From Candidatus Micrarchaeota archaeon (lineage in GTDB: Archaea > B1Sed10-29 > WALL01 > WAMD01), in the NCBI GenBank assembly GCA_964652335.1, contig CAZZDL010000001.1, positions 89,216 through 153,215 of the forward strand: a stretch of DNA of 64,000 nucleotides, read 5' to 3'. Below the pieces are notes generated by a model that was given only the letters and a program-made list of their open reading frames with translations, was not told where the DNA came from and did no database searches. Shown in pieces: positions 15,465-63,207 of the stretch. Both the position numbers and the translations under genes were made by a program. Each line of letters begins with the position of its first letter. The stretch's first letter is position 1.

Positions 15465-17924
15465 ATGAAGAGAAAGCTCAAAAAAGATGATAATAAGGGA
15501 ATATCCCCCATTGTTTCCGTCGTCCTGTTGATTGCTATTGCAGTCATAGCCGCGGTTAGCATTTATTTCTGGTCCGCAGGCCTAGTCACAAAGCAACCGA
15601 CGCCTGAGGGCCCAATCCCAATAACTGCTGTTCCTTTGGACAATCAAGGCCATGTGGCTGTTGCAAACCTTGGTAACAAGCCATTGACACTTAGCAAGTT
15701 AAACTCTACTGCGGGTGTTGAGTGTGACTTTGGTGGGACCGTCACAATCCAGCCTGGAGGGCAGGCTATTTGTACTATTCCTCCAAAGTCTGGGAAGATT
15801 GTTTTGTGGGGTTCTGGGACAGGTTCAACAGAGATAGAGCTTTCTGGTGTTGCAGAGGTAACTGTTACGAGCTCGCCTGGGTTTTCCACTTCATCCGTTA
15901 CTCAGGCAACTGAAGAGGACTTTGAAGAGGGAGCGTTCACAAATACAAGCACAGGATCAGACGAAGTCACATTAAAGGAACAATCCGTGGTGAGCATCGC
16001 CGACGTAACAGATTCAGGCTTTTTTGGAGGAGGGAGTGACAGTCATTTACCAAACGCAGGTTATCCTGGAGGTCTAGCTGTAGGAGACATAAACGACGAT
16101 GGGAAAAAAGACATTATTATCTCCTCCCCAGGATCATATTCAAACGATGGTAGGGTTTACATATTCTTTGACATAGAGAATACTCAATGGGATCATGGCA
16201 TAGGTTATGCTAACATTACAATATATGGAGCCACTGATGGAGTTATTACTGGTCCGAGTGGGGTCTTGGGAGACATAAACAATGATGGGAAGGATGATCT
16301 GATTATAGGAGAACTTTGTGATACTTCATCTTGTGACGGTAAGGTTTTCATAGTGTATGGTCCATTATCTCCTGGTAGTTACAATATAAAGTATATAGCT
16401 AATGCAACGATATCTGGAGGACAATATTCCAACCTTGGTTACGGAATATTCGTTTATGATATAAACAAGGATGGAAAGATGGATTTCATGGTCGGCGCAT
16501 CTAATGAATCAGGAGGGAACGGTAGTTATTATTTAGTATATGGGAACAGCTATTCAGGCAACTATAACATCACAGATGTTTACTCAGCTAAGATAACAGG
16601 GAATCAATCCAGTGAGCATGTGGGGTATGGACCAGTAGCATTTGGAGATGCAAACGGAGATGGAAAAGTAGATATTTTGATAGGTTCTCCTTATTACGAT
16701 GTAGAAACAGGTTTAGCGTATGATAATCCATATGATGGTAGGGCTGTATTGTTCTATGGGCCCATCTCTGGTAACCTCAGCATGAGCTCAGGGAATGTTA
16801 CTATCTATGGTAGAAGGATGTATGATTACCTTGGTTGGGACGTTGCTCTGTATGATATAAACAAAGACGGCAAAGACGATCTTATTATCTCTTCTCCAGG
16901 GTATGATCTATATGGTCCAGCTGCTGGCACTTGGAAGGATAGAGGTGCTGTTGCAGTCTTTTTCTCTCCAGCATCTTCAGGAACGTTCCAGTTCAATGAT
17001 ACACTGGATGCACATGGCAAATGTACATTTTCTACGAATGCGGATATGGCATTCACCTTTGACAACTCCACAGATCAGAAATTTGGAAGTGCAATAGGAA
17101 TAGGTGACTTCAAAGGAAATGGAGATATTGATATTGTTATAGGAGCAAAGGATATCAATAGAGCTTTTGTATATTATGACATTGAACCCACTAATGAAAT
17201 ATATGCTCAGGCTTATGGTATCGAAAGATATTGCTCAGGAGCCGATGTTACTCTTACGATTCCGTGGGATACAAGCGCATCTCTTGGAAGTTCCATATTG
17301 ACTAAGGACGTTAACAGTGATAACAAATACGACCTATTAATTGGATCTCCTGGTTACCATGGTGATGAGGGAAGAGTGGATATTCTATCAGGCAGTTTTC
17401 CATTTACACTGGCAAGCGATCATGGGAAATATTACTCAAAGGTCTTTGACTTAAATCATCTCTCTAATCTGACATATGTCACATGGACGTCAGATGAGCC
17501 AACTGGAACAGACCTAACTATAGAGCTGAGAATAGGGAATGCATCTGACGTAGATAACTCCTCAGGGTATGACATCTTGAACGTAGCTGGAACGAACGTT
17601 TCTAAGGGAAGTATCTCGTTGGGACCTGGAACCAAAGCTCAATACATAGCTTACTTCAATACAAGCGATACATCAAAGACACCAGTCCTCTACGACATAC
17701 AGCTTACCTACAAACCGCTCTACACAAATGTAACCTATACAATAAACTACGCCTCTGGCTTAAAATGGGTTGCACTAAACAGGAGCGATGGGACATTGGT
17801 AGCCAATGAAACAGTGAGCAATTGCGATACATTCTACACGAATACTAAGGAGGTTTCCACAGCGTATAGTTATACAGTTATATACAAGGGATGCGATGGT
17901 CAGACAAAGACATATGCGGTTTAA
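15465..17924 (+). CDS. large secreted FG-GAP (integrin-alpha-like beta-propeller) repeat protein with an N-terminal archaeal class III (pilin-type) signal peptide
   Basis: N-terminus MKRKLKKDDNKG then ISPIVSVVLLIAIAVIAAV; repeated DINNDGKDDLIIG, GDANGDGKVDILIGSP and DINKDGKDDLIISSPGY motifs. Confidence 0.7.
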   Translation: MKRKLKKDDNKGISPIVSVVLLIAIAVIAAVSIYFWSAGLVTKQPTPEGPIPITAVPLDNQGHVAVANLGNKPLTLSKLNSTAGVECDFGGTVTIQPGGQAICTIPPKSGKIVLWGSGTGSTEIELSGVAEVTVTSSPGFSTSSVTQATEEDFEEGAFTNTSTGSDEVTLKEQSVVSIADVTDSGFFGGGSDSHLPNAGYPGGLAVGDINDDGKKDIIISSPGSYSNDGRVYIFFDIENTQWDHGIGYANITIYGATDGVITGPSGVLGDINNDGKDDLIIGELCDTSSCDGKVFIVYGPLSPGSYNIKYIANATISGGQYSNLGYGIFVYDINKDGKMDFMVGASNESGGNGSYYLVYGNSYSGNYNITDVYSAKITGNQSSEHVGYGPVAFGDANGDGKVDILIGSPYYDVETGLAYDNPYDGRAVLFYGPISGNLSMSSGNVTIYGRRMYDYLGWDVALYDINKDGKDDLIISSPGYDLYGPAAGTWKDRGAVAVFFSPASSGTFQFNDTLDAHGKCTFSTNADMAFTFDNSTDQKFGSAIGIGDFKGNGDIDIVIGAKDINRAFVYYDIEPTNEIYAQAYGIERYCSGADVTLTIPWDTSASLGSSILTKDVNSDNKYDLLIGSPGYHGDEGRVDILSGSFPFTLASDHGKYYSKVFDLNHLSNLTYVTWTSDEPTGTDLTIELRIGNASDVDNSSGYDILNVAGTNVSKGSISLGPGTKAQYIAYFNTSDTSKTPVLYDIQLTYKPLYTNVTYTINYASGLKWVALNRSDGTLVANETVSNCDTFYTNTKEVSTAYSYTVIYKGCDGQTKTYAV

Positions 17925-23309: not shown

Positions 23310-24749
23310 ATGTCTTCCATTAAGAAAATCAATGATATTACCGTATATCTTGTTGATCTTCCAAAGTTAAGCGAGGAGGAAAAGAAATTCATTGATTCAA
23401 TAATAGAATCTGCAGTTAGGGATTTCACAGACGCAGAGTTATCTAGGATATTCTTGGTGGATGAAAAGAAGGGTGAATTCATCCACGACGTAAAGGCATT
23501 GCTGTCTAAAGTGCAGTTTACTGTTTATCCACACGAGAGGGATCTTGTTAGATCAAGGGTTGAGAAGTTGGTTGCGAAGTACATTGGTTCAAAAAGTAAA
23601 AAGATAGTTGACCTTGCGATAGATTACTTGTTTGGTTTTGGAAGGATAACGCCTCTGCTTTTGGACCCTGATATTGAGGAGATAATGATAAATGGAGAGT
23701 CCAAGCCAGTTTTTGTAGCTCATAGGTCCTACGGTATGTGCAGGACAAATATTGTTTATGATTCAAGAGAGGAGCTAGAGCTGTTAGCTGAAAGAATATT
23801 GAACATGAGGAAGCCAACGAGGCCAATAATAGATGGCTCATTGGAGGATGGCTCTAGGTTTAGTTTGGTCTTGCCACCCGTGTCACACGCTCCAACGATA
23901 ACAATAAGGAAGTTCACGTCGGAGCCGTTTAGTATAGCCGAACTAGTCCTGAATGGGACAATGAGTATAGATCTGGCAGCTTTTCTTTGGATGGCAGTTG
24001 AAGGGATGAAGGTGAGGCCTTCAAATATCTTGATAGCTGGGGGAGCAGGATCTGGAAAGACCACGACTCTTAACGCGTTAATAGGATTCATCCCTTCTGG
24101 TGAGAGGATAGTTACAATTGAAGATACCCCCGAGCTAAACCTAGCCGAACGAGATAATGTGGTTAGATTGTATTCTTATTATGATAGTAAGAATTCTGTT
24201 AGCTTGGCAGACTTGGTTAAAGCTTCATTGAGACTGAGGCCAGACAGGATAATAGTTGGTGAAGTTAGAGGTAGTGAAGCAGAATCAATGTTTACAGCAA
24301 TGGATGTTGGATGCTCAGGATCAATGGGGACTATCCATGCTAACTCTGCAAAGGAAGTGATAAAGAGGTTAAAGAATAAGCCAATGAATGTTCCAGAGAC
24401 TTTAATTCCATTGCTTGATATAATCTTAGTACAGCATAGAGTGAACGTTCCAGGAAAAGGGATAGTTAGGAGAATAGTTGAAGTGACAGAAGTGGATTAT
24501 CTAGACAAGATAACGCTTAATACAATATACAGATGGGATAGAGAATCTGACAGTTTGGTGAAATCAGATATACCTCCAACCTTGTTTGATAAGCTTTCCT
24601 CCTTGACAGGTCTTACTAAGCTGGAGATAATGGACGAGCTTGAGAAAAGGAAAAGAACATTGAAGAACGCGTTGAACAGAGGAATTAAGACTTACAATGA
24701 GTTATATCCTGAGATATCCAAAGACCTTAGTTCCAGATCTATGTCTTAG
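23310..24749 (+). CDS. FlaI/TadA/VirB11-family secretion ATPase (orphan paralogue of the 35031 gene); start moved to the internal Met MSSIKK
   Basis: Walker A GGAGSGKTT, Asp box, Walker B RPDRIIVGEVRG, His box GTIHANS, and a TITIRKF motif shared with the 35031 paralogue. Confidence 0.8.
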   Translation: MSSIKKINDITVYLVDLPKLSEEEKKFIDSIIESAVRDFTDAELSRIFLVDEKKGEFIHDVKALLSKVQFTVYPHERDLVRSRVEKLVAKYIGSKSKKIVDLAIDYLFGFGRITPLLLDPDIEEIMINGESKPVFVAHRSYGMCRTNIVYDSREELELLAERILNMRKPTRPIIDGSLEDGSRFSLVLPPVSHAPTITIRKFTSEPFSIAELVLNGTMSIDLAAFLWMAVEGMKVRPSNILIAGGAGSGKTTTLNALIGFIPSGERIVTIEDTPELNLAERDNVVRLYSYYDSKNSVSLADLVKASLRLRPDRIIVGEVRGSEAESMFTAMDVGCSGSMGTIHANSAKEVIKRLKNKPMNVPETLIPLLDIILVQHRVNVPGKGIVRRIVEVTEVDYLDKITLNTIYRWDRESDSLVKSDIPPTLFDKLSSLTGLTKLEIMDELEKRKRTLKNALNRGIKTYNELYPEISKDLSSRSMS

Positions 24750-26280
24750 TGATTACTCCTATCTCAACAAGTTTTTCTACAGCCGCTTTCACTAGAACTT
24801 TACTGTAACCTAATGTAACACTTGCATTATCTACATTCATTACTCCACCCCTGGATTTTATGTACTCAAATACGTCCATTAGTAGCGGATCCTCCGTTGA
24901 GAAATCAGGTCTCGTTATGTGGTATGTGCCGTCTACCACTAGTCTCTTGGTTGGCTTCTCTGCCATCAGTCTAGCTATTAAATTAGATTTATATGTTATT
25001 CCAAAGAAGCCGATTATAGTTAGCAGGACTACCACCACTATTAGCCAAATTACATTGATACAGAACTTCCCTATACATACTATTCCAACTTTTACCGCAC
25101 TTTCAAACGCGCAGTTTCCTATTTCATCTTTACAAAAGTAAGGATCTGGTTCCTTGTATATAACGTCGTATTCTGTCTTTAAGTTGAATGGGTCGTATTC
25201 CCTTGTTAACTCCCCAAGATTCGTTTCAACCCAAGCATAGTAGTTTCCCCCTCTTTGTTTCCCTATAATCAGCCTGGCAGGAATACCTACCCTCCTTGCA
25301 GATTCTCTAAATATCAATGCCTTTTCCAAACTGTCATATGACGATTTATTGCTCATCACTAGCCAGTCTACATTCGTTGTCAATGGGAAATCTGGACTGC
25401 CTGATGGCAAGTCGTTCACGTAGTCTACAATTGTTGCGTATATCTCGGAGGAGCCAGATGTTAGGTCTATGCTCGGTACGAATGTTGAGGAGGCGTATTT
25501 GTTTTCTTCATTTAGTAATGGATCTTTCTCAGATAGTAGGAACACTTCCTTGTCAACAACTGATTTCACAGGAAATGCATTGAGTATTGTTGATTCTGCA
25601 AAGTACGCTCCCAAGTAATGAAACTCTAGAGTATAGGTGGATTTGGCAGGAATCTTAACTGCCCATATGAACACTTTAGATGGTTGCATAGTAACATTCA
25701 CATCTGGGAGAGGATAACTTGGAGGGTACGGTTCAAAGTATATTATTAACATGTTTCCATACAATCCCCTATCTGTTGGAGACAAATATGCAAAATGTTT
25801 TGATTGATCCTTTGCAAATGGTGCGTACATTGAATAGGGATTGTTTTCATCAGTGATCTTTACCTCAACTATAACGTCTGTTTCCTTTGTATTTTCTAAT
25901 TTTATCTCCTGTATAACATCCTTGTCAGTTATAGTCACTTGAACGTTTGCATAGACATCCTCTGCAAAGGCTTCAGGATACGTTACCTTGAAGTTACTTA
26001 TGTCTGATCCAACCACAGGCTTGTCAAATCTCGGTTCAGGCATCTCTATCTCAGAGTTTAATACTCTCATGTATGGAAACGGGAATATTGGCATTAGATT
26101 GTTTACTAGCATTCTGTTCTCTGATGGGTTTATCTTTACTAAATGTTTGTCAGACGAAAAAAGCATGAAATTGTTTTCGTCTTCTCCAACGAAGGTTAGA
26201 GCAAATACAAATTGCGACGCTAGTAATAAACCAGTAATGATGACTAGTATGTTAAAGCAATTTTTCATGCACAATTTCAT
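24739..26280 (-). CDS. secreted, membrane-anchored protein with a large extracytoplasmic domain, one TM and a C-terminal cytoplasmic winged-helix-like domain
   Basis: signal peptide MKLCMKNCFNILVIITGLLLASQFVFA; TM VIWLIVVVVLLTIIGFFGI; C-terminal LLMDVFEYIKSRGG...SVTLGYSKVLVKAAVEKLVEIGVI resembles a wHTH. Confidence 0.5.
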   Translation of the reverse strand: MKLCMKNCFNILVIITGLLLASQFVFALTFVGEDENNFMLFSSDKHLVKINPSENRMLVNNLMPIFPFPYMRVLNSEIEMPEPRFDKPVVGSDISNFKVTYPEAFAEDVYANVQVTITDKDVIQEIKLENTKETDVIVEVKITDENNPYSMYAPFAKDQSKHFAYLSPTDRGLYGNMLIIYFEPYPPSYPLPDVNVTMQPSKVFIWAVKIPAKSTYTLEFHYLGAYFAESTILNAFPVKSVVDKEVFLLSEKDPLLNEENKYASSTFVPSIDLTSGSSEIYATIVDYVNDLPSGSPDFPLTTNVDWLVMSNKSSYDSLEKALIFRESARRVGIPARLIIGKQRGGNYYAWVETNLGELTREYDPFNLKTEYDVIYKEPDPYFCKDEIGNCAFESAVKVGIVCIGKFCINVIWLIVVVVLLTIIGFFGITYKSNLIARLMAEKPTKRLVVDGTYHITRPDFSTEDPLLMDVFEYIKSRGGVMNVDNASVTLGYSKVLVKAAVEKLVEIGVITKT

Positions 26281-34996: not shown

Positions 34997-35010
34997 ATTA
35001 TTTTAAATAT
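34997..35010 (+). promoter_or_regulatory. putative archaeal TATA box (ATTATTTTAAATAT) about 27 nt upstream of the pilus ATPase ATG, implying a leaderless transcript
   Basis: AT-rich TATA-like element in the 39-nt thrS-ATPase spacer. Confidence 0.3.
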
Positions 35011-35030: not shown

Positions 35031-36602
35031 ATGGCGTATCTAGATGAGTTAATAAAATTAGGTAAAGAGAAGGAGAAGAAGAAAACTGAAGAAAAAAAGA
35101 CAGAGGAAGAGAAGAAACCATCTAAGATAGACGAATGGGTTGAAGGGTCTTTACCTCCTGGAAGCGAGCTTATAGACGCATATGGAATATGCAAGATATA
35201 CAAAGTAAAAGGAGAAAAACAGCTAATCTATGCAGTTCCAGTTCCAAAACCTGCTGGACCTGATAGAGTCATAATTGACACAATAAAAGAGGCAGCAACA
35301 AAATTGATAACTGTTTCACCCGAGCAGATAAAGGATCCAGACGAGAGAAGGGAGTTCTACAAAAAGAGAGTTATGGAAATAATAAAATCCACACCAGAGC
35401 TTGGAGTCCCTCCGAACTGGCAGCCATTCTATGCAGAAACTGTTGTTAGGGAGATGATAGGATACGGGGCGCTAGATCTCCTTCTTGAGGATGATGCATT
35501 AGAAGAAATAATGGTCATTGGTCCGGGAAAACCAGTGTATGTATTCCATAGAAAATATGAGATGTGTAAAACAAATGTAATATTTGGAACTGATGATGAT
35601 ATTAGAGCTATAATAGATAGGATAGCGAGGGACGTTGGAAGAAGAATAGATATACAGGTCCCATTGTTGGATGCTAGACTACCAGATGGGTCCAGGGTAA
35701 ATGCTACAATTCCTCCAATCAGCTTAAACGGTTCAACTATAACAATAAGGAAGTTTAGGGAAGATCCTTACACTATCGTTGATTTAATAAAGAACGGCAC
35801 CGTTAGCTCTGAACTAGCTGCCTTCATGTGGATAGCTGGGGAAGGGCTTTCAGCTAAGCCAGCAAATGTTATAATATCTGGAGGAACAAGTTCTGGAAAA
35901 ACGACAACGCTAAACGTCATGAGCATGTTTATCCCACCAACAGAAAGGGTTATTACAATAGAAGATACAGCAGAGTTGAAGCTTCCAATAGAACATTGGA
36001 TAAGGTTTGAGACTAGACCGCCAGGACTTGAGGGAACTGGGGAAATAGACATGAATGCATTGGTGAAGAACTCACTGAGAATGAGGCCAGATAGGGTTAT
36101 AGTTGGTGAAGTAAGAGGTGAGGAGGCGTTTACATTATTCACTGCAATGAACACAGGTCACGACGGTTGTATGGGCACTGTTCACGCCAATGATTCAAGG
36201 GAAACCATAGTCAGGCTAACGAATCCGCCAATGAATGTCCCAAGCGTCATGCTGTCTGCATTGGATATAATAATAACACAGAAAAAGATACATGATAGAA
36301 GGAAGGGCACCATAAGAAGAGTAACAGAGGTTGCAGAAGTCACTGGTGTTTTGGAGGGCAAACCACAACTCATTTATCTCTATGAATGGGATCCAGTCAC
36401 TGATCAAATCAAGCCTACAGGTGTCCCGAGTAAGTATCTTAGAACACTGGAAAGGTATACTGGTCTTAGTCATGCAGAGGTCATGGAGGAGCTAGAAAGA
36501 AGGAAGGAGTTCCTTGAAGGGCTTGTTTCAAAGGGTATCAGGGACATAAAATCTGTTTCTAAAGAGATAACAGCTTACATAGCTGGTGGACATAATGGCT
36601 AA
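35031..36602 (+). CDS. type IV pilus assembly ATPase, FlaI/TadA family
   Basis: Walker A GGTSSGKTT, Walker B RPDRVIVGEVRGEEA, His box GTVHANDS, TITIRKF motif. Confidence 0.85.
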   Translation: MAYLDELIKLGKEKEKKKTEEKKTEEEKKPSKIDEWVEGSLPPGSELIDAYGICKIYKVKGEKQLIYAVPVPKPAGPDRVIIDTIKEAATKLITVSPEQIKDPDERREFYKKRVMEIIKSTPELGVPPNWQPFYAETVVREMIGYGALDLLLEDDALEEIMVIGPGKPVYVFHRKYEMCKTNVIFGTDDDIRAIIDRIARDVGRRIDIQVPLLDARLPDGSRVNATIPPISLNGSTITIRKFREDPYTIVDLIKNGTVSSELAAFMWIAGEGLSAKPANVIISGGTSSGKTTTLNVMSMFIPPTERVITIEDTAELKLPIEHWIRFETRPPGLEGTGEIDMNALVKNSLRMRPDRVIVGEVRGEEAFTLFTAMNTGHDGCMGTVHANDSRETIVRLTNPPMNVPSVMLSALDIIITQKKIHDRRKGTIRRVTEVAEVTGVLEGKPQLIYLYEWDPVTDQIKPTGVPSKYLRTLERYTGLSHAEVMEELERRKEFLEGLVSKGIRDIKSVSKEITAYIAGGHNG

Positions 36603-37680
36603 GAACATAGAAGTAGAGGAAAGAAAACAAGCAGGTTATAGGAAGACCGACGTAGAAACAATAATACGAAGAATGAAAAAAGTCTATCAAGAGAGAGGAT
36701 ATTCAGAAGAAGAAGCAAAAGCACTTGTTTTGAAAAGGGCAGTTACAGGTACAAGGGCTATTGATATTGAGACAATGGCCCCAAAGGACCTAGTAAAATC
36801 CAACAACGCATTGCTGCGGATAGTTGGGATTGTTTTTTCCAGATTTAGCTTTCTTTCTTCCCTAGCAGAAAAGATTGCTGACTCTGATATAGGATCAAGG
36901 TTAATGAGGGCACTAGATTCAGTAAATTCAAGGTATTCAACAAGTCAGTACATAGCTATTGCCATGTTTGTATCCTTGTTCTCGGCTTTCATACTTTCTT
37001 TACTGTTTACATTCGCTTTGATGGACATAGCTGACCCAGTGGTGATGTTTCCGATAGTGTTTATCACTTCGTATCTGTTCTCATTTTTTATTGCGTTGAA
37101 GCTCCCTGAATCAAATGCTAAAAGGAGAGGAAAGAACATAGATAAAGTTCTTCCATTCGCATTGAGACATTTTGCGACTGAGATAAAGGCAGGTGTTGGT
37201 ATTCACAAAGCAATGAGAGCCATTGCAAATTCAGGATACGGAGCTTTGTCAGAGGAGTTTCAGAGGGTGATAGACGAAATAGAAAAGGGAGTTACCACAG
37301 AGGATGCTCTAGAAGCTTTGGCAAATAGGACAGAGTCTGATGATCTTGCTAGATCAATATTGCACATAATAAGAGCCTTGAGAACTGGTGGAAATCTGTC
37401 AGAGATATTAACAAAGATTGCAGATGATGTTTCTTTTAACCTAGCTGTTAGGATGAGAGATTTCTCAGAAAGATTGACATTGATAAGTTTGTTCTATATG
37501 ATGGCAGGAGTTGTGTTCCCTGTTTTCATATCTGTTTTGTTTGCGATATTCTCATCTGCCCCGTCCTTGGGTCTAGCCGGTGTTGTAGGACCAGATATTC
37601 TCATGATGATATATCTCATAATAATTCCCATGTCCCTGGGTGTTATCCTGTACATAATTAATGTAACTCAGCCAATGTGA
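36586..37680 (+). CDS. type II secretion system F-domain membrane protein (TadC/FlaJ-like, single domain)
   Basis: multi-TM protein with one T2SSF-like soluble domain; overlaps the ATPase stop. Confidence 0.65.
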   Translation: MDIMAKNIEVEERKQAGYRKTDVETIIRRMKKVYQERGYSEEEAKALVLKRAVTGTRAIDIETMAPKDLVKSNNALLRIVGIVFSRFSFLSSLAEKIADSDIGSRLMRALDSVNSRYSTSQYIAIAMFVSLFSAFILSLLFTFALMDIADPVVMFPIVFITSYLFSFFIALKLPESNAKRRGKNIDKVLPFALRHFATEIKAGVGIHKAMRAIANSGYGALSEEFQRVIDEIEKGVTTEDALEALANRTESDDLARSILHIIRALRTGGNLSEILTKIADDVSFNLAVRMRDFSERLTLISLFYMMAGVVFPVFISVLFAIFSSAPSLGLAGVVGPDILMMIYLIIIPMSLGVILYIINVTQPM

Positions 37681-38549
37681 TGATCATGGAGATATACAGG
37701 CAGTACAAGGCCGCCATAAAGGCGATGAATGAAGAGTGGGAACCAGACATAGTTCTGCTAGAGGCATTGTTCTTATCGTCCATATTGTTCGTTTATGTTG
37801 GATTATTCGTTGATATCTTCCTTGGTGGATTACTAGCTTTGATAGTAATGGATCTAGCTGTTGGATATCCAATTCACAGAGTGCAAAAACGGATAGAGAG
37901 CATAGAAAAAGGTCTTCCTGATGTTTTAAACCATATAGCTATCAGCATAAGGGCAGGGGCGACAGTTGAGGCGGCTTTGAAGGAGATAGCGGAATACAGG
38001 TATGGCATTCTCTCTAAGGAAATGAAAAAGGTCTTGCTGGCAATGAAGAAGGGAAAGACATTTGAGGACGCATTTAGAGATTTTGCAGAATCTTCAGGTT
38101 CTCCACTTGTTGAAAAGACAGCAGAGGTTATAATATCTGCGAAGATGTCTGGAGGAGGATTGACTGCAGCGTTAACTAGTATAGCAGATGATATTAGACA
38201 CATATACAGGCTGAAAAAAGAGAGAAAAGCAAGAACAACGACGCAAGTTCTGTTCATAATAGTTGCAGCAAATTTCGTTGCACCAATGATATTTAGCTTG
38301 CTTACCGGTGTCATGCAGTTTATGGGTTATATTGCTGGTGAAGCAGCAACGCCAGCGTTTGAGGCAATAACGTTTTATTTCAAGGTTTATCTAATAATCT
38401 CAGCCGTTTTCTCATCTGTTGCAGCGGCATTAATAAGGGAAGGAAACCTGAGTAAGGTAGTTATATATGCACCAGTTTTGTTACTAATAACGTATGGTAT
38501 ATACATGGGGGTGAGTAGCTTTGCACTCAAGCTTTTTATCGGAGGATAG
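37677..38549 (+). CDS. second type II secretion system F-domain membrane protein (TadB/FlaJ-like, single domain)
   Basis: ATGA-coupled to the previous gene; hydrophobic N-terminus and T2SSF-like segment LPDVLNHIAISIRAGATVEAAL. Confidence 0.65.
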   Translation: MMIMEIYRQYKAAIKAMNEEWEPDIVLLEALFLSSILFVYVGLFVDIFLGGLLALIVMDLAVGYPIHRVQKRIESIEKGLPDVLNHIAISIRAGATVEAALKEIAEYRYGILSKEMKKVLLAMKKGKTFEDAFRDFAESSGSPLVEKTAEVIISAKMSGGGLTAALTSIADDIRHIYRLKKERKARTTTQVLFIIVAANFVAPMIFSLLTGVMQFMGYIAGEAATPAFEAITFYFKVYLIISAVFSSVAAALIREGNLSKVVIYAPVLLLITYGIYMGVSSFALKLFIGG

Positions 38550-38679
38550 AGGGCAGATATCACTTGAACAGATACTGCTGTTGTCATCTATAGTCATGGG
38601 AATGTTGGTGCTTGGGTATTTGGTCAAAACACAGCTGAAGAATTTGTTTGCTGAGCAGAAGGTGGTTGCCAACGAAACA

Positions 38680-38716
38680 TTTAATAAGAGCATATGAGTT
38701 TATGCTAAAGGAGGTG
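38680..38716 (+). promoter_or_regulatory. TATA-like box (TTTAATAA, 38680-38687) plus a strong Shine-Dalgarno (AAGGAGGTG, 38708-38716) ahead of the major pilin gene
   Basis: GGAGGTG lies 6 nt before the ATG; own promoter in the 173-nt spacer. Confidence 0.35.
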
Positions 38717-38722
38717 TAATTT

Positions 38723-39100
38723 ATGTTTGGTAGAAAAGGTCAAGGAGCATTGGAATACTTATTGATATTGGCTGCAGTTTTAGTGATAGCAGTAATAGTG
38801 ATATTGGTTGCACACAGGATATCTACACCAGCTCAAACATCTGTTACAGTAAACCAGGACAAATTTGACTGTGCAAAGGTAGGTATAGAATTGTTGAATT
38901 ACAATGAGCTTCCACAACAGGCCAGTGACGTATCTGTGAAGTACAACGACATTTCAGATACGTGTGAGCAAACCACAACTGAGCCAGACAGTTACGATGC
39001 AAGCTGTAAGATACACTTTAAGGACAACTCAGAGCACTACCTATACGTGAATCAGCCAAATACAACATCGGTAGAGTGTTATATACAGGTATCAGCATAA
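38723..39100 (+). CDS. major pilin, Flp-like, with class III signal peptide
   Basis: MFGRKG then QGALEYLLILAAVLVIAVIVILV; G-Q cleavage context with Glu+5 and Tyr+6. Confidence 0.75.
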   Translation: MFGRKGQGALEYLLILAAVLVIAVIVILVAHRISTPAQTSVTVNQDKFDCAKVGIELLNYNELPQQASDVSVKYNDISDTCEQTTTEPDSYDASCKIHFKDNSEHYLYVNQPNTTSVECYIQVSA

Positions 39101-39113
39101 GAGGAGTGAGTAG

Positions 39114-39284
39114 ATGGATGACCGCGGCCAGACCTCGTTGGAATACTTGTATCTTCTAGCTTTTGTTGTAGGTCTGGCCGCAGCAGTTGCTCTGATAGTC
39201 AATGACATTCTAGCTATTCAGTCCAGGGCAAAGACAAAACTAGAGTATTATAGAGATCACATCCTAGGGAAGATATTAAGATGA
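39114..39284 (+). CDS. Flp-like mini-pilin (56 aa), not in the ORF track
   Basis: translation MDDRGQTSLEYLYLLAFVVGLAAAVALIV...; TGA overlaps the ATG of the peptidase gene (ATGA). Confidence 0.6.
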   Translation: MDDRGQTSLEYLYLLAFVVGLAAAVALIVNDILAIQSRAKTKLEYYRDHILGKILR

Positions 39285-40231
39285 TCTACATAGGCATAGC
39301 ATTGATAATGGTCTGTTTGGCTACTTATTTTGATTTAAAAAATAGAGTCATCCCAAGAGAAATAACCCTGGGTGGATTAGGATTAGGTCTTGCACTTAGA
39401 TTCTTGGATTCTGGGATTCATTCAAACCCTTTAAGCTTTGTCACAGTCTTGTTTTCTGTATTGACCACATTTGTTCTTGTTTATTTTCTCTGGAGGATAG
39501 GAGTCCTTGCAGGGGGAGATGCTAAGCTTTTGACAGCTTTGGCAGCTTATTTACCAGTATTCCCTTCATCCACATTTCATATCTTCTATAGACTATCCTT
39601 TGTCCCGATAATATACAATGGGATCATGGCATTTACCCCGTTTTTGTTGGTCTATTCTTTTGTCTTAGGAGATGGTTTTAGGAAACTTACACGCATTGCG
39701 CAAAAGGCGATTGGCCTTTCATTCCTTTCATTCTCTTCTTTCTCATTTTTTAGTTGGCCATTGAGTATTATTGTATTCTTAGTATTAAGCTACCTACCGT
39801 ACAAGGCATTAATTTTTCTGGTACCAGCAATCCTGGCAGGGTTAAGATTTGGATTTGGCGGATTAATTTATCAGTTCTTACTGTTCTTCTTATTGTCGTC
39901 CTTCTACGAACTTACAGTTGGGTCTATTTCATTATTTGTTAAGACAAAGAAAGTTAACGAGCTCAAAGAAGGGGATGTTTTGTACGATGTGGTGATTGAT
40001 TGTAAAATTGTTAAAAGGGATTTGTTCAACATTATCAAAGCTATTACCCAGGGAATAGCTCCATTGTCTAGAGGATTGTCTAAGGGTGAGATAGCCAAAC
40101 TAAAGAAATGTGGAATTGATACAGTTAGAATCCAGCAATCTTTCCCATTCACACCAGTCATCCTTGCCGGTTTTATTATCTGTGTAACATTTGGGGATTT
40201 GATCTATCTCTTACTTAATAGCTATTTCTAA
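39281..40231 (+). CDS. prepilin peptidase (A24 family, TadV/EppA/FlaK-like) with a C-terminal extension
   Basis: catalytic Asp contexts YFDLKNRVIPRE and LAGGDAKLL; poly-TM. Confidence 0.75.
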   Translation: MIYIGIALIMVCLATYFDLKNRVIPREITLGGLGLGLALRFLDSGIHSNPLSFVTVLFSVLTTFVLVYFLWRIGVLAGGDAKLLTALAAYLPVFPSSTFHIFYRLSFVPIIYNGIMAFTPFLLVYSFVLGDGFRKLTRIAQKAIGLSFLSFSSFSFFSWPLSIIVFLVLSYLPYKALIFLVPAILAGLRFGFGGLIYQFLLFFLLSSFYELTVGSISLFVKTKKVNELKEGDVLYDVVIDCKIVKRDLFNIIKAITQGIAPLSRGLSKGEIAKLKKCGIDTVRIQQSFPFTPVILAGFIICVTFGDLIYLLLNSYF

Positions 40232-40266
40232 CCAAAAAGGCTAAATAGGTATGATATGTTATTCTC

Positions 40267-40734
40267 TTGATGAGGGGTACATTATCAATTGATCTTTTAG
40301 TCACATCAATAGTTATTCTAATGTTAACATCAACAATAATAAGTTTTGTCTATTTTGAGGAAGAAAGAATACTTGAAGCAGGGTACGAATTGGGGGCTCA
40401 GGCTTTGGCTATATCAATTGGTTCTGCGATCAACCAGTTCATTGCAATATCCCCAGATTCTGGTAATTTATCAATATACGTAAAAGACATATCCAATGAC
40501 CCAGCTACAATATCCATGGCAGGAATTCCATTCTCCAATGTGATAGTTACATCTAAGTATTGCAATTACACAATATCAAATGGGAATGTTAATGTTACAA
40601 TAAAACTTGAGTTTGCAGGAACAGGTAGGACAAAAATAGTGAGCGCAAGTTACCCAATATTTGCAAAGGGTTTGTATAGGTCAGGCGATTGTGGGAGTAC
40701 TATAATAATAGATGCGTCAGAGGTGATTCAGTGA
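40267..40734 (+). CDS. minor pilin-like protein (class III signal)
   Basis: MMRG then TLSIDLLVTSIVILML (Asp+5). Confidence 0.5.
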   Translation: MMRGTLSIDLLVTSIVILMLTSTIISFVYFEEERILEAGYELGAQALAISIGSAINQFIAISPDSGNLSIYVKDISNDPATISMAGIPFSNVIVTSKYCNYTISNGNVNVTIKLEFAGTGRTKIVSASYPIFAKGLYRSGDCGSTIIIDASEVIQ

Positions 40735-41003
40735 AGGGGCAGATATTCACAATGGACCTGTTTCTTTCATTGATGGTTATGGTTTTGATAATCAGCATGG
40801 CAGTCGTTATTATTGATGAGCATATAGATGGATTGTATGAAAGGGCTACTGAAGTAAAACTGCAATCCATTGCAATGGACACAGCCAGTTTGCATTACTA
40901 CACGGGTAAGACAGATAACCTAACAAAGATCACGGGAGAGACATGCATACACGCAGTGAGAGGAACAGCGTCCAATGAGGTGATTGGGATTGCATGCGAG
41001 TAA
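40731..41003 (+). CDS. minor pilin-like protein; proposed GTG start (GTGA overlap with the upstream stop)
   Basis: GTG start gives MKG then QIFTMDLFLSLMVMVLI, a clean class III signal; the track ATG start would add 14 non-signal residues. Confidence 0.5.
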   Translation: MKGQIFTMDLFLSLMVMVLIISMAVVIIDEHIDGLYERATEVKLQSIAMDTASLHYYTGKTDNLTKITGETCIHAVRGTASNEVIGIACE

Positions 41004-41259
41004 GGGCGTCGTTTTTAGTATAGAAGTGGCGATTGCCTCTTTATTGTTCATGGTATCCATTGCCATGCTTTATTATTCCTCAGCAGGCTCTGAAGATATG
41101 CCATTTGAATTTCAACAGTCAATGAGGGTAGCTCATGATATGGTTACATCTGGAGATATTAGTTTGCCTGATGGATACTCAAACCAAAGCTGTGATTGGT
41201 ATGCAAGATACGCACCATTAGACTATGAGGGGTATCACGCGGAGGTATGCTTCAAATGA
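40984..41259 (+). CDS. minor pilin-like protein
   Basis: MGLHASKG then VVFSIEVAIASLLFMV. Confidence 0.45.
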   Translation: MGLHASKGVVFSIEVAIASLLFMVSIAMLYYSSAGSEDMPFEFQQSMRVAHDMVTSGDISLPDGYSNQSCDWYARYAPLDYEGYHAEVCFK

Positions 41260-41837
41260 AGGGATTTGTTAATTCATGGAGTGTCATACTAATTGCAACA
41301 TCAATAATTGTACTACTGTCTATGTTCCTGTTTATAGATATAGATTTTAGGGCATTGGACAGCGGATACATAGTTGAATTGTCAAGATGGTATGGAGACG
41401 CTGCGTACACAGCTGCCAAGGGAGGCACATGTGATCCGAAGATATTTGAAAAAAACGTTGTGAAAGAGGGTAAAGATATCCAATTTTCTTCATCTGGCAG
41501 AACCAGAAAACTCTTGTACACTGGTAAATTGGTCAATCTCAATATAACGTATGTGAAAAATTATCCGCCGGTGATAGACATAATAGATCCGTTGAATGGG
41601 ACTACTAATCAATGTGTGAACACATACACAATACAGTGGACAGCGTGTGATATAGATGAAGACAGTTTGAATTACACTGTTTTTTTAGATTCCGTGGTAA
41701 TAGGAGAGACAAATAAAACGTATTTAGACGTACCATGCACTACTCTTGATGGAACTCATGCAATCAAAGTAACTGGTACAGATGGAGAATTAAATGGTAG
41801 TGATACAGTCATCGCAACATTTACTTCATCTAGCTAG
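41247..41837 (+). CDS. minor pilin-like protein with a larger C-terminal domain
   Basis: MLQMKG then FVNSWSVILIATSIIVLL. Confidence 0.45.
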   Translation: MLQMKGFVNSWSVILIATSIIVLLSMFLFIDIDFRALDSGYIVELSRWYGDAAYTAAKGGTCDPKIFEKNVVKEGKDIQFSSSGRTRKLLYTGKLVNLNITYVKNYPPVIDIIDPLNGTTNQCVNTYTIQWTACDIDEDSLNYTVFLDSVVIGETNKTYLDVPCTTLDGTHAIKVTGTDGELNGSDTVIATFTSSS

Positions 41838-43193
41838 TTTTTCTAAATATGCTTGTGGTTTCATCCCTCTCCTCTTTGCAAGTTTCCTAATAGCTTTGTC
41901 TACCCCTGATCCATATTGAGCTGCTTTTTTAGGTCTCTTTGCTACATAAGCTGGGACTCCTTCTTCCTTTGCTATCTTTCTTAGGACTTCTTTCTTTGCA
42001 TCCCCTAGCTTTAGCTTAGGATGTATAAGCATCGCTTCCTTTACTACGTCAAGGTCTAGGAAAGGAGTTCTTAGCTCAATACTGTTTGCCATTGTTGCTA
42101 AGTCATCTCTATACAAGTCCCTTTCCCACATGGTCTCTAGGCCATCCCACATCGCATTGTGAAGGCCTGTCCATCCACCAGACCTATACGCTTCCAGATG
42201 CCTTTCATATCCAGCAAACAGTTCTTCTGTTCCCAAACCAGAGAATATGACCTTGTTTCCATCTTCTTTAGCTAGCTTTGATGCAACGTAGAATGGAAAT
42301 GCAACACCTATTTTCATGACATTTGTAGTCTCTAATTGCCTAACTAGAGTAGGTAACAATCCTTCCACAGCCTTTAAATCTAGTTCTATTGTTTTTAAGT
42401 CTATTCCTAGCTCTTCACCAACTCTTTTTGCCCATTCCATATCTTGCGAATCAGGAAACCCAGTTGTGTATGCCTGAACTTTTACTCGCTTGGATAGTAG
42501 CACGTATAAAAGCGTAGAATCAACCCCGCCAGAGAATAGGAGTGCGACTTTCTTAACATCTGATGTCATCTTCTTTACTGCGTTTTTTATTTTTTTCTTT
42601 AGAGCAGAATAGTCTTTCTTTACTGGTTCCTTCCTTTCCAGTCTTTCCCTTTTTCTTTCAATAATACCCTTTGTTGATAGGACAAGTGTTTCACCTGGGA
42701 GCACTGGCCATGTTTCACCTGGCAGAACCTTTGCCTCGCTTGCAAATTTTGGCTTCCCATTTGTAGATATCCATAACGGTTTTACTCCTAGAATGTCCCT
42801 CCCAACGATTATTTCTCCTTTTTCAATGTTAGGAATATACGCAAATGCGTATGTCCCATCTAGTTTATTCAACCCGTCTACACCGTATTTCCTTAATACA
42901 TTTATAATAGCGTCAGCACCAGATTTTGCTTTTAGTTCTTTCAGATTGTATATCCTCCCGTCAAATACTATTGCGGAATTGTATTTTGTTATTGGCTGTT
43001 TTGGTTCTTTTGTTATTCTGAATAAATTATGAGCTATCACTCCTCTTTGCTTTGCTTCTAATTGATCATAGTCTCCGTATATTAGATCACCACTTTCATC
43101 CATTAAGCCAAATCCGTTAGGCCCTCTGTGGGCTAGGCCAGTCACAAGTTTGCCGATTACTCCTCCACCAACCGTTCCAGAAACTCCAGACAT
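41826..43193 (-). CDS. asnB: asparagine synthetase (AsnB family) with Ser in place of the N-terminal Cys nucleophile
   Basis: MSGVSG N-terminus, HRGPNGFG, FDGRIYN, PP-loop SGGVDST. Confidence 0.7.
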   Translation of the reverse strand: MSGVSGTVGGGVIGKLVTGLAHRGPNGFGLMDESGDLIYGDYDQLEAKQRGVIAHNLFRITKEPKQPITKYNSAIVFDGRIYNLKELKAKSGADAIINVLRKYGVDGLNKLDGTYAFAYIPNIEKGEIIVGRDILGVKPLWISTNGKPKFASEAKVLPGETWPVLPGETLVLSTKGIIERKRERLERKEPVKKDYSALKKKIKNAVKKMTSDVKKVALLFSGGVDSTLLYVLLSKRVKVQAYTTGFPDSQDMEWAKRVGEELGIDLKTIELDLKAVEGLLPTLVRQLETTNVMKIGVAFPFYVASKLAKEDGNKVIFSGLGTEELFAGYERHLEAYRSGGWTGLHNAMWDGLETMWERDLYRDDLATMANSIELRTPFLDLDVVKEAMLIHPKLKLGDAKKEVLRKIAKEEGVPAYVAKRPKKAAQYGSGVDKAIRKLAKRRGMKPQAYLEKLAR

Positions 43194-56606: not shown

Positions 56607-57387
56607 AATAGATCTGAGGAAAAGTATTCCTGAGAATGCAGCTCATTATTACGAAATGGCAAAAAAGGCAAAAAGGAAGATACCGAGATTGATAGAGGAG
56701 ATAGAAAGGACAAAGCGGTTGATAGAAGAACAAGAGAAAGAATTGGAAAAGAAACCAAAGAAGAGGAGAGAAAAGGATTGGTACGAAAAGTTCCATTGGT
56801 TTTTCACATCTGATGGTTTTCTCGTGTTAGGTGGAAAGGATGCACGTTCAAATCAAAAATTAGTTAGAAATTATCTTGAGGATAGGGATTTGTTTTTCCA
56901 TGCGGACATAAAAGGAGCGTCTGCGGTTATCCTAAAGTCTGGTGGTAAAACTATCAGCGACGAGGCAAAGAAGGAAGCAGCCAGGTTTGCATCTGCTTTT
57001 TCAAAGGCATTTTCCCTTGGGTTGAGAGCAGTGGATGTTTACTGTGTTAAGCCAGATCAAGTGAAACTGGCTGCCAAGTCAGGAGAGTTTCTGCCAAAGG
57101 GAGGTTTTGTAATTTTGGGCGAAAGGGAATGGTTTAAGGATGTCCCAGTGGAGATAGCTGTTTCATATGATAAGGAAAAGCAGAGGATAGTGTCTGGTCC
57201 AGCTGAGGCAATGAAGAGATACGGTAATTATATTCTTGTTGTCCCAGGTGAAAAGGACAAAGGAGACGTAGCCAAGGCAATAAAAAATAAGATAGACGAA
57301 TGGTTTTCAGTTGATTCATCTATAGATGAGATACTGGCTGCACTCCCAGCTGGAAAGGCTAGACTAATCCTGCCCCAACAATCCTGA
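56590..57387 (+). CDS. NFACT-R / DUF814 domain protein (FbpA/Tae2 C-terminal-like)
   Basis: GFLVLGGKDARSNQKLVRNYLEDRDLFFHADIKGASAVIL. Confidence 0.6.
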   Translation: MPTKVEIDLRKSIPENAAHYYEMAKKAKRKIPRLIEEIERTKRLIEEQEKELEKKPKKRREKDWYEKFHWFFTSDGFLVLGGKDARSNQKLVRNYLEDRDLFFHADIKGASAVILKSGGKTISDEAKKEAARFASAFSKAFSLGLRAVDVYCVKPDQVKLAAKSGEFLPKGGFVILGEREWFKDVPVEIAVSYDKEKQRIVSGPAEAMKRYGNYILVVPGEKDKGDVAKAIKNKIDEWFSVDSSIDEILAALPAGKARLILPQQS

Positions 57388-58024
57388 ACCTTGCAATTCC
57401 TTCTTTTCTAAATGGATGTTTTACTAGCTTAGCAATCCTTGTATCTCCCTTTCTTGATAACTCTACCCTAACCTTTGCATTATAGCCCAATACCTCTTTA
57501 GCTAATGGCTCATATTTGCCTTTGAAATCTGAATAGATTTGATTTGTCACCAGCACGGCTGCGTTTTTTTCTCTAGCATGCCAAGCTAGCATGGCCAGCT
57601 GCCTTGCAAGTGTTTGGTTAACTGGAAACGGATCCAGTCTATCTAGCTCCAGTCTGTAATGGTATGTTATTGGATCAGCTACTATTAGTGAGAATTCCTT
57701 CCCGGCTATGCTATTTATCATTTCTCCTTGTTCCGCAAGGCTCTTGGGCTCTAGCAGGATTGTATTCTCAAGGACCTTGGAGAATGATTCTTCAGCAATT
57801 TGGGAAACCCTTTCAAAATGAAATGATCCCTCTGGATCAATGTAAGCTACTTTGCCACCTGCCTTTATCGCATTAACCGTAGCCTGAATAGCGATATTTG
57901 ATTTTCCAACCCCAGGAGGCCCGTAGAATTCAGTTATGACTCCAGTGGGTATGCCACCGCCCAATAGGGAATCTACAGAACATCCAAGAGGAATAGCTCT
58001 TCTTCCTAAGATGGATTTTTCCAT
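57359..58024 (-). CDS. radB: RadB recombinase (RecA/RadA paralogue)
   Basis: 221 aa; Walker A GPPGVGKS; RecA-fold. Confidence 0.75.
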   Translation of the reverse strand: MEKSILGRRAIPLGCSVDSLLGGGIPTGVITEFYGPPGVGKSNIAIQATVNAIKAGGKVAYIDPEGSFHFERVSQIAEESFSKVLENTILLEPKSLAEQGEMINSIAGKEFSLIVADPITYHYRLELDRLDPFPVNQTLARQLAMLAWHAREKNAAVLVTNQIYSDFKGKYEPLAKEVLGYNAKVRVELSRKGDTRIAKLVKHPFRKEGIARFRIVGAGLV

Positions 58025-61916: not shown

Positions 61917-62087
61917 ATGGATGACAAAGGGCAAGTATCTGCTGAAATGCTTGTTCTAATGGCCGCTGTCCTGGCGGTAGCATGGCTAGTCCTTTCAAGC
62001 ATGAGCAGTACAGCTAAATCAAGCACAGAGACAGTAAACAGGACGACTGGAAAGATCCTAGACAAGATAGAAAAAATGACTGGTTAA
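61917..62087 (+). CDS. Flp-like mini-pilin paralogue (56 aa), not in the ORF track
   Basis: translation MDDKGQVSAEMLVLMAAVLAVAWLVL...; the same GGGGGAGAGG RBS-like element upstream. Confidence 0.6.
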   Translation: MDDKGQVSAEMLVLMAAVLAVAWLVLSSMSSTAKSSTETVNRTTGKILDKIEKMTG

Positions 62088-62088
62088 A

Positions 62089-62469
62089 ATGAAGGCACAA
62101 ACTAGCCTAGAATTCCTAGTGGTGCTTGCTGCCATGCTCTCTTTCCTAGCTGTCTGGGTAGGCATGGCAGCAAGCACAGGGTCAAGGATTTCTTCTAGCC
62201 TTGACTCTAGGGACGTTTCTCTGGCAGTGAAGACCTTGGCTAGTGACGCTGATTCCATTTGCCTAATGGCTGTTGGTTCTAGGATAGAAGTAGAATTGAT
62301 ATTTCCTGTTGAAACAGAGTTGGCTGCAAATGGGAATAACTTAGTCGCTAGCTGGGGGAACGAAAGTGTATCCTACCCAACGAGGTGTAAAGTATTTACA
62401 AGGAAGGTTGTATATGGCAATGAAAAATTCACTTTGGAGAGAGGGTTACTTGGCGTCTACATAACCTAA
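62089..62469 (+). CDS. pilin-like protein with class III signal
   Basis: MKA then QTSLEFLVVLAAMLSFLAV (Gln+1, Glu+5). Confidence 0.55.
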   Translation: MKAQTSLEFLVVLAAMLSFLAVWVGMAASTGSRISSSLDSRDVSLAVKTLASDADSICLMAVGSRIEVELIFPVETELAANGNNLVASWGNESVSYPTRCKVFTRKVVYGNEKFTLERGLLGVYIT

Positions 62470-62801
62470 TAGCCAAAGTAAAAATAGACATCCTCGGGCT
62501 TATCTCCAGAGAAATCTACTCTGCGTATGACAAATACATTTTTAGGATTTTCCCATTTCACTTTTGTCTCAATTCCGTTTCTAATTATTTTCATCTGAAG
62601 GTCTGGATTCGTGGCTTCTAGTATAATCCTTGCCTCTGATGTAGACAACCCCAAATCAAGTATTATCTCTGATATATCACTCCCTTGCTTGTATGCAACT
62701 GCTTTGTCTAGATTCACATTGTAAACTGGTCTAGCTAGAATCACTACAAGTATAAGTAATGATATTACTGCTTCAATTGTGAATGATGCCCTGCTACCCA
62801 T
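62466..62801 (-). CDS. pilin-like protein (start moved to the internal Met MGSRA)
   Basis: MGSRA then SFTIEAVISLLILVVIL. Confidence 0.4.
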   Translation of the reverse strand: MGSRASFTIEAVISLLILVVILARPVYNVNLDKAVAYKQGSDISEIILDLGLSTSEARIILEATNPDLQMKIIRNGIETKVKWENPKNVFVIRRVDFSGDKPEDVYFYFGY

Positions 62802-62802
62802 T

Positions 62803-63207
62803 TTATACTTTAAGATAAATGATATTTCCATCTTCATCCATAACCACCCTGGTTACTGAGCCGTTTCCGCAAACGGTGCAATTTTTTGAATTCACAAATC
62901 CGAGCTTGGCTAGTCTTTCTCTGGATATCCTTTGGGGTATGACCACCATTCTATCCTTGGAGAAAATAGCGGCCCCTGTTAAATGGTTGTTTATTATCAA
63001 ATCGGATCTCACAATAGACTCAGCCTGACTCCTTACCATTGACGCCGAGTTAGCGATTATAGTAGTATGGATCAAGAGTTGAGTCAGTCCAATTGAAATT
63101 GTCATTATGGTTATTATCATCCATATCTGAGCGTCAATCATCCGTATACCTCCTATAGCTTGTGTTACCAATCCCAGTTGCCCAATCGTCTTTGGAAAGC
63201 AGTTCAC
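62803..63207 (-). CDS. hypothetical protein with an N-terminal hydrophobic segment, in the pilin operon
   Basis: IWMIITIMTISIGLTQLLI; operon context. Confidence 0.35.
   Translation of the reverse strand: MNCFPKTIGQLGLVTQAIGGIRMIDAQIWMIITIMTISIGLTQLLIHTTIIANSASMVRSQAESIVRSDLIINNHLTGAAIFSKDRMVVIPQRISRERLAKLGFVNSKNCTVCGNGSVTRVVMDEDGNIIYLKV

Follow-up and report, generated by a model that had tools for sequence, protein, structure and literature searches.

An Epd-like archaeal type IV pilus operon predicted in a DPANN-type archaeon

What kind of filament is encoded between positions 35,031 and 41,837 of a 64,000-nucleotide (nt) stretch of Candidatus Micrarchaeota DNA (assembly GCA_964652335.1, contig CAZZDL010000001.1, positions 89,216 to 153,215; hereafter the window), where genes for an assembly ATPase, membrane platform proteins, small pilins and a prepilin peptidase follow one another? 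A preliminary description of this locus, made from the sequence, took it for a complete non-archaellum pilus operon of the Tad/Epd type with a split platform, and that core reading is supported. Gene content, domain families, catalytic motifs, paralogy, ATPase affinity, synteny and the cleavage motif all point to an Epd-like archaeal type IV pilus operon (Makarova Clade 1, also System 1) in a DPANN-type archaeon, an assignment from sequence to which a probability of about 85% is given. The features that appeared striking at first are hallmarks of this class, as each has been reported in the cited literature on the Epd-like clade; earlier publications already cover the class itself, the split platform, the rule for cleavage and the occurrence in DPANN, and current understanding is left unchanged. 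What the locus adds is a tidy single-operon example, with ATPase, split platform, three pilins bearing Gln at the first mature position (Gln+1), peptidase and four candidate minor pilins, and, for structural studies or reconstitution in a heterologous host, a handy minimal set of genes.

The assembly machine and its relatives

Epd-like archaeal pili and bacterial Tad have been placed in one clade, both having short pilins and two platform genes with a single T2SSF domain each, attributed to gene fission (Denise et al. 2019; PMC6668835). Clade 1 of Makarova et al. (2016; PMC4858521), made up of methanococci, methanobacteria and thermococci, has two TadC-like genes, five or more minor pilins, the peptidase EppA and major pilins of about 70 aa. 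System 1, a name given by Sivabalasarma and Albers to the sister group of bacterial Tad, is reported from DPANN too, with a split platform (2026 preprint; bioRxiv 10.64898/2026.04.22.720090). In Methanococcus maripaludis, EpdL acts with the paralogues EpdJ and EpdK, and the much larger peptidase EppA needs Gln+1 in substrates that carry Glu at +5 (Pohlschroder and Esquivel 2015; PMC4371748). The locus shows the same combination: two adjacent single-T2SSF platform genes stand beside the ATPase gene, the class III pilins of family PF04021 ([KR][GA]/Q, Glu+5) include short non-globular ones, and the A24 peptidase has two catalytic aspartates.

The ATPase carries the nucleotide-binding motifs in full (Walker A, GGTSSGKT284; Asp box, EDTAE311; Walker B, RPDRVIVGEVR; His box, TGH375), which together with its T2SSE match (Table 1) bears out the earlier designation as a FlaI/TadA-type ATPase. 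NCBI names its homologues 'CpaF family protein', several of them are annotated by JGI as 'flagellar protein FlaI', and the top-scoring NCBIfam model is the FlaI equivalog NF058587, yet its score of 316.7 bits lies far below the cut-off of 550; the TadA family model TIGR03819 gives 242 bits, below its cut-off of 373. Among proteins in the PDB, the best full-length match is A. fulgidus GspE (afGspE; 288 bits), with C. crescentus CpaF at 272 bits (325 aa) and S. acidocaldarius FlaI at 216 bits (430 aa). Over 303 ungapped core columns, identity is highest to CpaF (46%), followed by afGspE (43%) and FlaI (38%); CpaF itself is only 32-33% identical to the latter two over the same columns. The phylogeny proposed as a check was built as a simple neighbor-joining tree with three PDB references (CpaF, afGspE and FlaI, without EpdL), in which the split between FlaI plus afGspE and the clade of the window ATPase plus CpaF was recovered in 200/200 bootstraps. 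The homologue search returned thousands of relatives, with no identifiable Methanococcus EpdL reference among them.

Taken at face value, the FlaI labels and the FlaI model at the top of the list would make the ATPase a FlaI, or the whole an archaellum (motility) locus, and the two systems do share the same superfamily of ATPase, platform and A24 peptidase as well as class III signal peptides. This reading is extremely improbable: the FlaI cut-off is missed by a wide margin, CpaF and afGspE both outscore FlaI, the ATPase stands apart from FlaI in every bootstrap replicate, and the platform is encoded by two single-domain genes, unlike FlaJ. Pilins of 56-125 aa with Gln+1, as found here, are moreover not processed by the M. 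maripaludis preflagellin peptidase FlaK (PMC4371748). The earlier observation that the locus lacks flagellin and archaellum genes holds for the whole window, as no archaellin, FlaH, FlaJ, FlaF/G or FlaCDE/X gene was found among the approximately 70 proteins scanned.

Each of the two platform proteins contains one PF00482 domain, as had been noted from the sequence. Platform protein 1 has 361 aa in the public gene calls, with a GTG at 36586 as an alternative start; it corresponds in alignments to the N-terminal half of the two-domain UpsF/BasF, and platform protein 2 to the C-terminal half of UpsF/ArlJ. The two are paralogues that share 32% of their residues over 150 aa (E 4e-20). PDB sequence searches with both proteins and with the peptidase gave nothing useful. 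The preliminary description had called this a bacterial TadB/TadC-like arrangement, which does not hold: because the split platform is published as a hallmark of the archaeal Epd-like clade, it is native to that clade and not something an archaeon took over from bacteria, and bacterial Tad is itself thought to derive from the archaeal Epd-like clade (PMC6668835).

The nearest ATPases are encoded in DPANN metagenome-assembled genomes, at 86% identity in a 'Nanobdellati archaeon' and 75-76% in Micrarchaeota or unclassified archaea; more distant relatives are found in Thermococcus (58-60%) and in Hadesarchaea and Hydrothermarchaeota (50-55%). Of 80 related loci from these groups (DPANN, Thermococcus, Hadesarchaea, Hydrothermarchaeota), nearly all keep the order ATPase-platform-platform, and in many DPANN and Hadesarchaea loci pilins of the QGA(L/I/T)EY type and a peptidase come next, as they do here. 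Thermococcus differs in that its pilins and peptidase are encoded elsewhere and a DUF515 gene lies upstream of its ATPase locus.

This distribution bears on a second alternative, in which the locus would belong to another two-platform class of archaeal pilus, either DPANN subsystem 4A/4B or euryarchaeal Clade 2/System 2. Many Clade 2 loci have two tadC-like genes (PMC4858521), as do subsystems 4A/4B, including some DPANN (10.64898/2026.04.22.720090), and the best full-length PDB match of the ATPase is, as mentioned, afGspE. Over the shared core, however, the ATPase is nearer to CpaF than to afGspE, and its whole clade groups with CpaF, as published for Epd-like systems. Thermococcus orthologues share its gene order, and Clade 1, but not Clade 2, is reported to include Thermococci; the peptidase is of the long EppA-like form, reported with Clade 1 only (PMC4858521); the pilins carry the PF04021 motif with Gln+1 and Glu+5; and only one platform gene occurs in System 2 (10.64898/2026.04.22.720090). 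Membership in one of these other classes is therefore considered quite unlikely.

A second T2SSE ATPase of about 479 aa is encoded in the window at 23310-24749 (plus strand), 38% identical to the operon ATPase. Its PDB scores run in another order (afGspE 237, FlaI 196, CpaF 165 bits), and, used as an internal control in the tree, it is excluded from the CpaF-related clade in 197/200 replicates. It was considered as a FlaI and rejected, with 283 bits against the cut-off of 550 and no adjoining archaellum or platform genes. Its long ORF (open reading frame) call, starting at 23052, overlaps the gene of a CCA-adding enzyme, and the true start is probably internal. The protein recalls the extra orphan VirB11-like ATPase of M. 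maripaludis (PMC4371748). Convergent with it lies the gene of a membrane-anchored protein of 513 aa (24739-26280, minus strand) without a Pfam or NCBIfam match, in which the stretch 'GIPARLIIG...YYAWVE' tentatively resembles, by eye, a transglutaminase-like core lacking the catalytic Cys and His; transglutaminase-family surface proteins have been tied to Clade 1 pili (PMC4858521).

Pilins, cleavage sites and the prepilin peptidase

Three pilins, of 58, 125 and 56 aa, follow the platform genes (Table 1), and all three combine Gln+1 with an acidic residue at +5, so that the EppA-type Gln+1 rule invoked in the preliminary description holds for them. The 125-aa protein is the only pilin of the locus above the PF04021 threshold (34.4 bits against 23.7; E 2e-8); its homologues occur in many related loci, often as tandem copies and in varying number. 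Mini-pilin 1 has homologues in two of the related loci, L001 and L002, and in six further ones. Of the pilins, mini-pilin 2 is conserved best, with 84% identity to L001 and 74% to L002, conservation that equals or exceeds that of the ATPase, where the 125-aa pilin reaches 55% (L001). The stop codon of mini-pilin 2 lies within a 4-nt overlap with the start of the peptidase gene. An apparent kinship of mini-pilin 2 to an 818-aa DinG-like helicase, with which it shares a 90% identity cluster, was dismissed as a clustering artefact with no sequence relation. The earlier wording of a 56-aa Flp-like mini-pilin stands as to its length and its RG/QTSLEY site; 'Flp-like' can be kept as an analogy, as the suggested HMM (hidden Markov model) searches gave no Flp_Fap or TadE match at E <= 0.1 in any of the seven pilin-like proteins.

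The other four of these seven, d1 to d4, are encoded downstream of the peptidase, and each has a short basic leader ending in [KR]G and one N-terminal hydrophobic helix. They had been counted as four minor pilins; four ORFs with pilin-like N-termini are indeed present, and their status as pilins is putative. Nor is every cleavage site of the form G or A before Q with Glu+5, as had been stated: Gln+1 is found in 4/7 N-termini (the three pilins and d2), and the only A/Q site lies outside the locus, at 62089. The +1 residue is Thr in d1 (RG/TLSID), Val in d3 (KG/VVFSIE) and Phe in d4 (KG/FVNSWS), and d2 (KG/QIFTMD) has Gln+1 but Asp at +6. A Big_7 match in d4 remains below threshold (21 bits against 24.1).

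Among 277 pilin-like ORFs downstream in related loci, Gln+1 is present in 161, of which 156 have Glu or Asp at +5; Tyr+6 is present in 112 of all 277. A G or A before Q with Glu+5, and often Tyr+6, is thus the predominant pattern and is found family-wide. The lengths of the ORFs are bimodal, at about 50-78 aa and about 95-185 aa.

The peptidase combines an A24 domain with a C-terminal extension, comprising about 8-9 hydrophobic segments in all, and gives weak matches to Arc_PepC and Arc_PepC_II. Its catalytic Asp motifs are D18 in YFDLKNRVIP and D80 in AGGDAKL (GxGD-type); of the 29 homologues aligned from related loci, all have D80 and 28 have D18, the other showing a gap there, in agreement with the earlier claim of an A24 peptidase having both Asp motifs.

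Several observations weigh against assignment to the Epd-like class. EppA is the best NCBIfam model for the peptidase and aligns end to end, but at only 30 bits against a cut-off of 450, so the protein does not qualify as an EppA equivalog. The Gln+1 that M. maripaludis EppA requires is missing from d1, d3 and d4, and d1-d4 find no HMM support as pilins in Pfam or NCBIfam, apart from the sub-threshold Big_7 match. Single-sequence AlphaFold2 models are uninformative, with a mean pLDDT (predicted local distance difference test) of 37 for d4 and 52 for the 125-aa pilin, in which the N-terminal helix alone is confident. Two platform genes also occur, as described above, in some DPANN subsystem 4A/4B and some Clade 2 loci, and membership rests on three PDB references, a neighbor-joining tree and Thermococcus orthology, with no M. 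maripaludis EpdL, EpdJ/K or EppA in the comparison. Lastly, no FleN/MinD/TadZ or FlaH-like ATPase was found among the scanned proteins of the window; the earlier statement that every expected part is present is overstated in this respect. Such an accessory ATPase is described in the literature as frequent, not obligatory, in Clade 1 and Tad loci. RadB (57359-58024), the only RecA-like protein in the window, was considered as a FlaH/KaiC-like partner and rejected as a RadB equivalog (186.7 bits against a cut-off of 172.4).

In comparing the locus to M. maripaludis Epd (EpdA-E), both have one ATPase with two single-domain platform paralogues (EpdL; EpdJ/EpdK), a large A24 peptidase (EppA there, an enzyme of EppA-like architecture here), pilins with [KR][GA]/Q cleavage sites and Glu+5, and short non-globular pilins accompanied by several minor pilins (putative here), and both are distinct from the archaellum. 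They differ in that a single 6.8-kb operon is found here, whereas the M. maripaludis genes are spread over at least three loci with a stand-alone major pilin; the peptidase has diverged strongly from EppA; Gln+1 is missing from d1, d3 and d4 among the four downstream proteins; neither a FlaH/FleN-type partner ATPase nor a large DUF2341 adhesin accompanies the genes; and the organism is a DPANN archaeon, not a methanogen. With bacterial Tad/Flp (type IVc) the locus shares an ATPase that groups with CpaF, the tadA-tadB-tadC-like order, Glu+5/Tyr+6, and a gene for a mature pilin of about 50 aa directly before the peptidase gene. Unlike Tad/Flp, it is without Flp_Fap or TadE matches, its peptidase is a long archaeal form predicted to cut before Gln, its host is an archaeon, and TadZ, the RcpA secretin, TadD and TadG were not found in the window scans. 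In an archaeon, no secretin would be expected.

A second cluster of five pilin-like genes, on both strands, is found at 61917-63764 and runs to the window edge, with no adjoining ATPase or platform gene; the same machine probably handles its products as additional substrates.

Table 1. Features of the pilus locus and of the second pilin-like cluster in window coordinates; a slash marks the predicted cleavage site.
Feature	Position	Strand	Size, start	N-terminus	Match or remark
TATA-like box TTTTAAATA	35001..35009	+			sequence motif, 21 nt before ATPase ATG
Assembly ATPase, CpaF/TadA/EpdL-like	35031..36602	+	523 aa		PF00437 T2SSE, E 4e-48
Platform protein 1	36595..37680	+	361 aa, ATG		one T2SSF domain, PF00482, 7e-24
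Platform protein 2	37680..38549	+	289 aa		one T2SSF domain, PF00482, 1e-19
Shine-Dalgarno GGGGTGAG	38508-38515	+			ahead of mini-pilin 1 TTG start
Mini-pilin 1	38521..38697	+	58 aa, TTG	MHSSFLSEDRG/QISLEQ...	no globular domain; called in public records
TATA-like TTTAATAA	38680-38687	+			within last codons of mini-pilin 1, 35 nt ahead of 125-aa pilin ATG
Shine-Dalgarno GGAGGTG	38710-38716	+			6 nt ahead of 125-aa pilin ATG
125-aa pilin	38723..39100	+	125 aa	MFGRKG/QGALEY...	PF04021 Class_IIIsignal; small C-terminal domain
Mini-pilin 2	39114..39284	+	56 aa	MDDRG/QTSLEY...	PF04021 0.014, sub-threshold
Long A24 prepilin peptidase, EppA-like architecture	39281..40231	+	316 aa		PF01478, 1e-12
Putative minor pilin d1	40270..40734	+	154 aa	MRG/TLSIDLL...	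N-terminal motif, single N-terminal transmembrane segment; L001 homologue
Putative minor pilin d2	40731..41003	+	90 aa, GTG	MKG/QIFTMDLF...	homologues in L001 and Hadesarchaea loci
Putative minor pilin d3	40990..41259	+	~89 aa	M-HASKG/VVFSIEVA...	N-terminal motif only
Putative minor pilin or tip adhesin d4	41256..41837	+	193 aa	MKG/FVNSWSVIL...	N-terminal transmembrane segment, C-terminal immunoglobulin (Ig)-like region
Pilin-like, second cluster	at 61917		56 aa	MDDKG/QVSAEM	PF04021, 27.6 bits, above 23.7
Pilin-like, second cluster	within 61917-63764		126 aa	MKA/QTSLEF	A/Q site at 62089
Pilin-like, second cluster	within 61917-63764	-	123 aa	..SRA/SFTIEAV	
Pilin-like, second cluster	within 61917-63764	-	72 aa	RGKRG/QVSIETL	
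Pilin-like, second cluster	within 61917-63764	-	150 aa	MKG/FSFILVL	

Layout, expression and likely role

The locus comprises eleven plus-strand ORFs with junctions of -29 to +38 nt, which confirms the eleven same-strand genes counted earlier, the 58-aa ORF completing the number; the starts refined here for this ORF, d1 and d2 agree with public gene calls on a contig of 177.6 kb. Genes for ThrRS and Elp3 lie upstream, and a convergent asparagine-synthase-like gene (41826-43193, minus strand) lies downstream. The 3' ends of d4 and this gene overlap by 12 nt (41826-41837), leaving no space for an intergenic terminator.

The TATA-like box TTTTAAATA ahead of the ATPase gene, which occurs only twice on the plus strand of the 64 kb, is probably the operon promoter, from which a leaderless or near-leaderless mRNA would be made. 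A second TATA-like motif, TTTAATAA, and its spacing to the next ATG (34-35 nt) are kept in the related loci L001 and L002. Mini-pilin 1 ends in AANETFNKSI, and these ten residues and their coding DNA (38668-38697, which includes TTTAATAA) are conserved in three genomes, while the rest of this protein is only about 55% identical across them. Two explanations can be proposed from the sequence: either TTTAATAA is a promoter embedded in coding sequence, or the conservation reflects constraint on the protein, as ANETFNKSI carries two N-x-S/T sequons (NET and NKS) that may be N-glycosylated.

In the proposed mechanism, the operon would be transcribed from the box just upstream of the ATPase gene, and expression of the 125-aa pilin may be raised by the second box, within the last codons of mini-pilin 1. 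The seven pilin-like precursors would enter the membrane through their N-terminal hydrophobic helix, where the EppA-like aspartyl peptidase (D18, D80) is predicted to cut the short basic leader after Gly, exposing Gln+1 and leaving Glu+5 in the helix. A hexameric CpaF/EpdL-like ATPase would then drive a platform of the two T2SSF paralogues, equivalents of TadB/TadC or EpdJ/EpdK, which would lift mature pilins from the membrane into the filament. The proteins d1-d4 would probably form a priming or tip complex, with the Ig-like domain of d4 as a candidate adhesin. By analogy with M. maripaludis Epd and with Tad, from which we infer an adhesive role, the filament would serve in attachment to surfaces or, in DPANN, to host cells, and not in swimming.

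Which of the pilins makes up the bulk of the filament bears on this scheme. The preliminary description had named the 125-aa protein the major pilin, with its own TATA-like box and a GGAGGTG ribosome-binding site; both motifs are present, and the protein is a candidate major subunit, a place that a mini-pilin could hold instead by analogy with EpdE and Flp. A variant of the Epd-like reading keeps the machine and changes its composition and role: the short non-globular pilins (58 and 56 aa, and the 56-aa protein at 61917) would be major, the 125-aa pilin would be minor or form a second filament, and the DPANN cell would use the filament mainly to attach itself to a host archaeon, not to abiotic surfaces. 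Major pilins in the Epd and Tad lineages are without a globular domain (PMC6668835, 10.64898/2026.04.22.720090), two filament types have been proposed for System 1 (10.64898/2026.04.22.720090), mini-pilin 2 is better conserved than the 125-aa pilin, the nearest relatives of the locus are DPANN genomes, and a protein with a pilin N-terminus and FG-GAP repeats (819 aa, see below) is encoded in the window. The 125-aa pilin, however, has the strongest Shine-Dalgarno sequence and possibly its own promoter, is the sole in-locus pilin above the PF04021 threshold, and belongs to a family amplified in tandem in relatives; this variant is a real possibility, if somewhat short of an even chance.

The 819-aa protein (15465-17924, plus strand) matches TIGR02537 (archaellin/type IV pilin N-terminal domain) at its start, with 35 bits where 20 are required, and has the site KG/ISPIV, without Gln+1; at least six FG-GAP repeats (1.6e-37) come next. 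Its signal peptide type is unlike that of Epd-like pilins, and it is a candidate pilus-borne adhesin.

A more speculative and rather unlikely proposal joins these elements into one machine with two pilin classes at two expression levels. The internal TATA-like motif, conserved at synonymous sites in three genomes and at fixed spacing, would add to transcription of the globular 125-aa pilin, so that thin Flp-like or thicker decorated filaments could be made, and a single divergent EppA-like peptidase would have relaxed +1 specificity, accepting Gln as well as T/V/F/I, including the FG-GAP adhesin 17 kb away. If true, this two-class machine with its relaxed peptidase would provide the DPANN cell with its host-attachment organelle. 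Returning to the Epd-like operon as such, it could help in studying host attachment by DPANN cells and the strictness of EppA-type peptidases towards Gln+1.

Elsewhere in the window, two large phosphoenolpyruvate (PEP)-utilising enzymes are encoded close together on the plus strand. The first (7327-9606) consists of PPDK_N and the mobile domain, with the C-terminal PEP-binding domain apparently lacking, and the second (10387-13023) is a full PEP synthase/PPDK-like protein.

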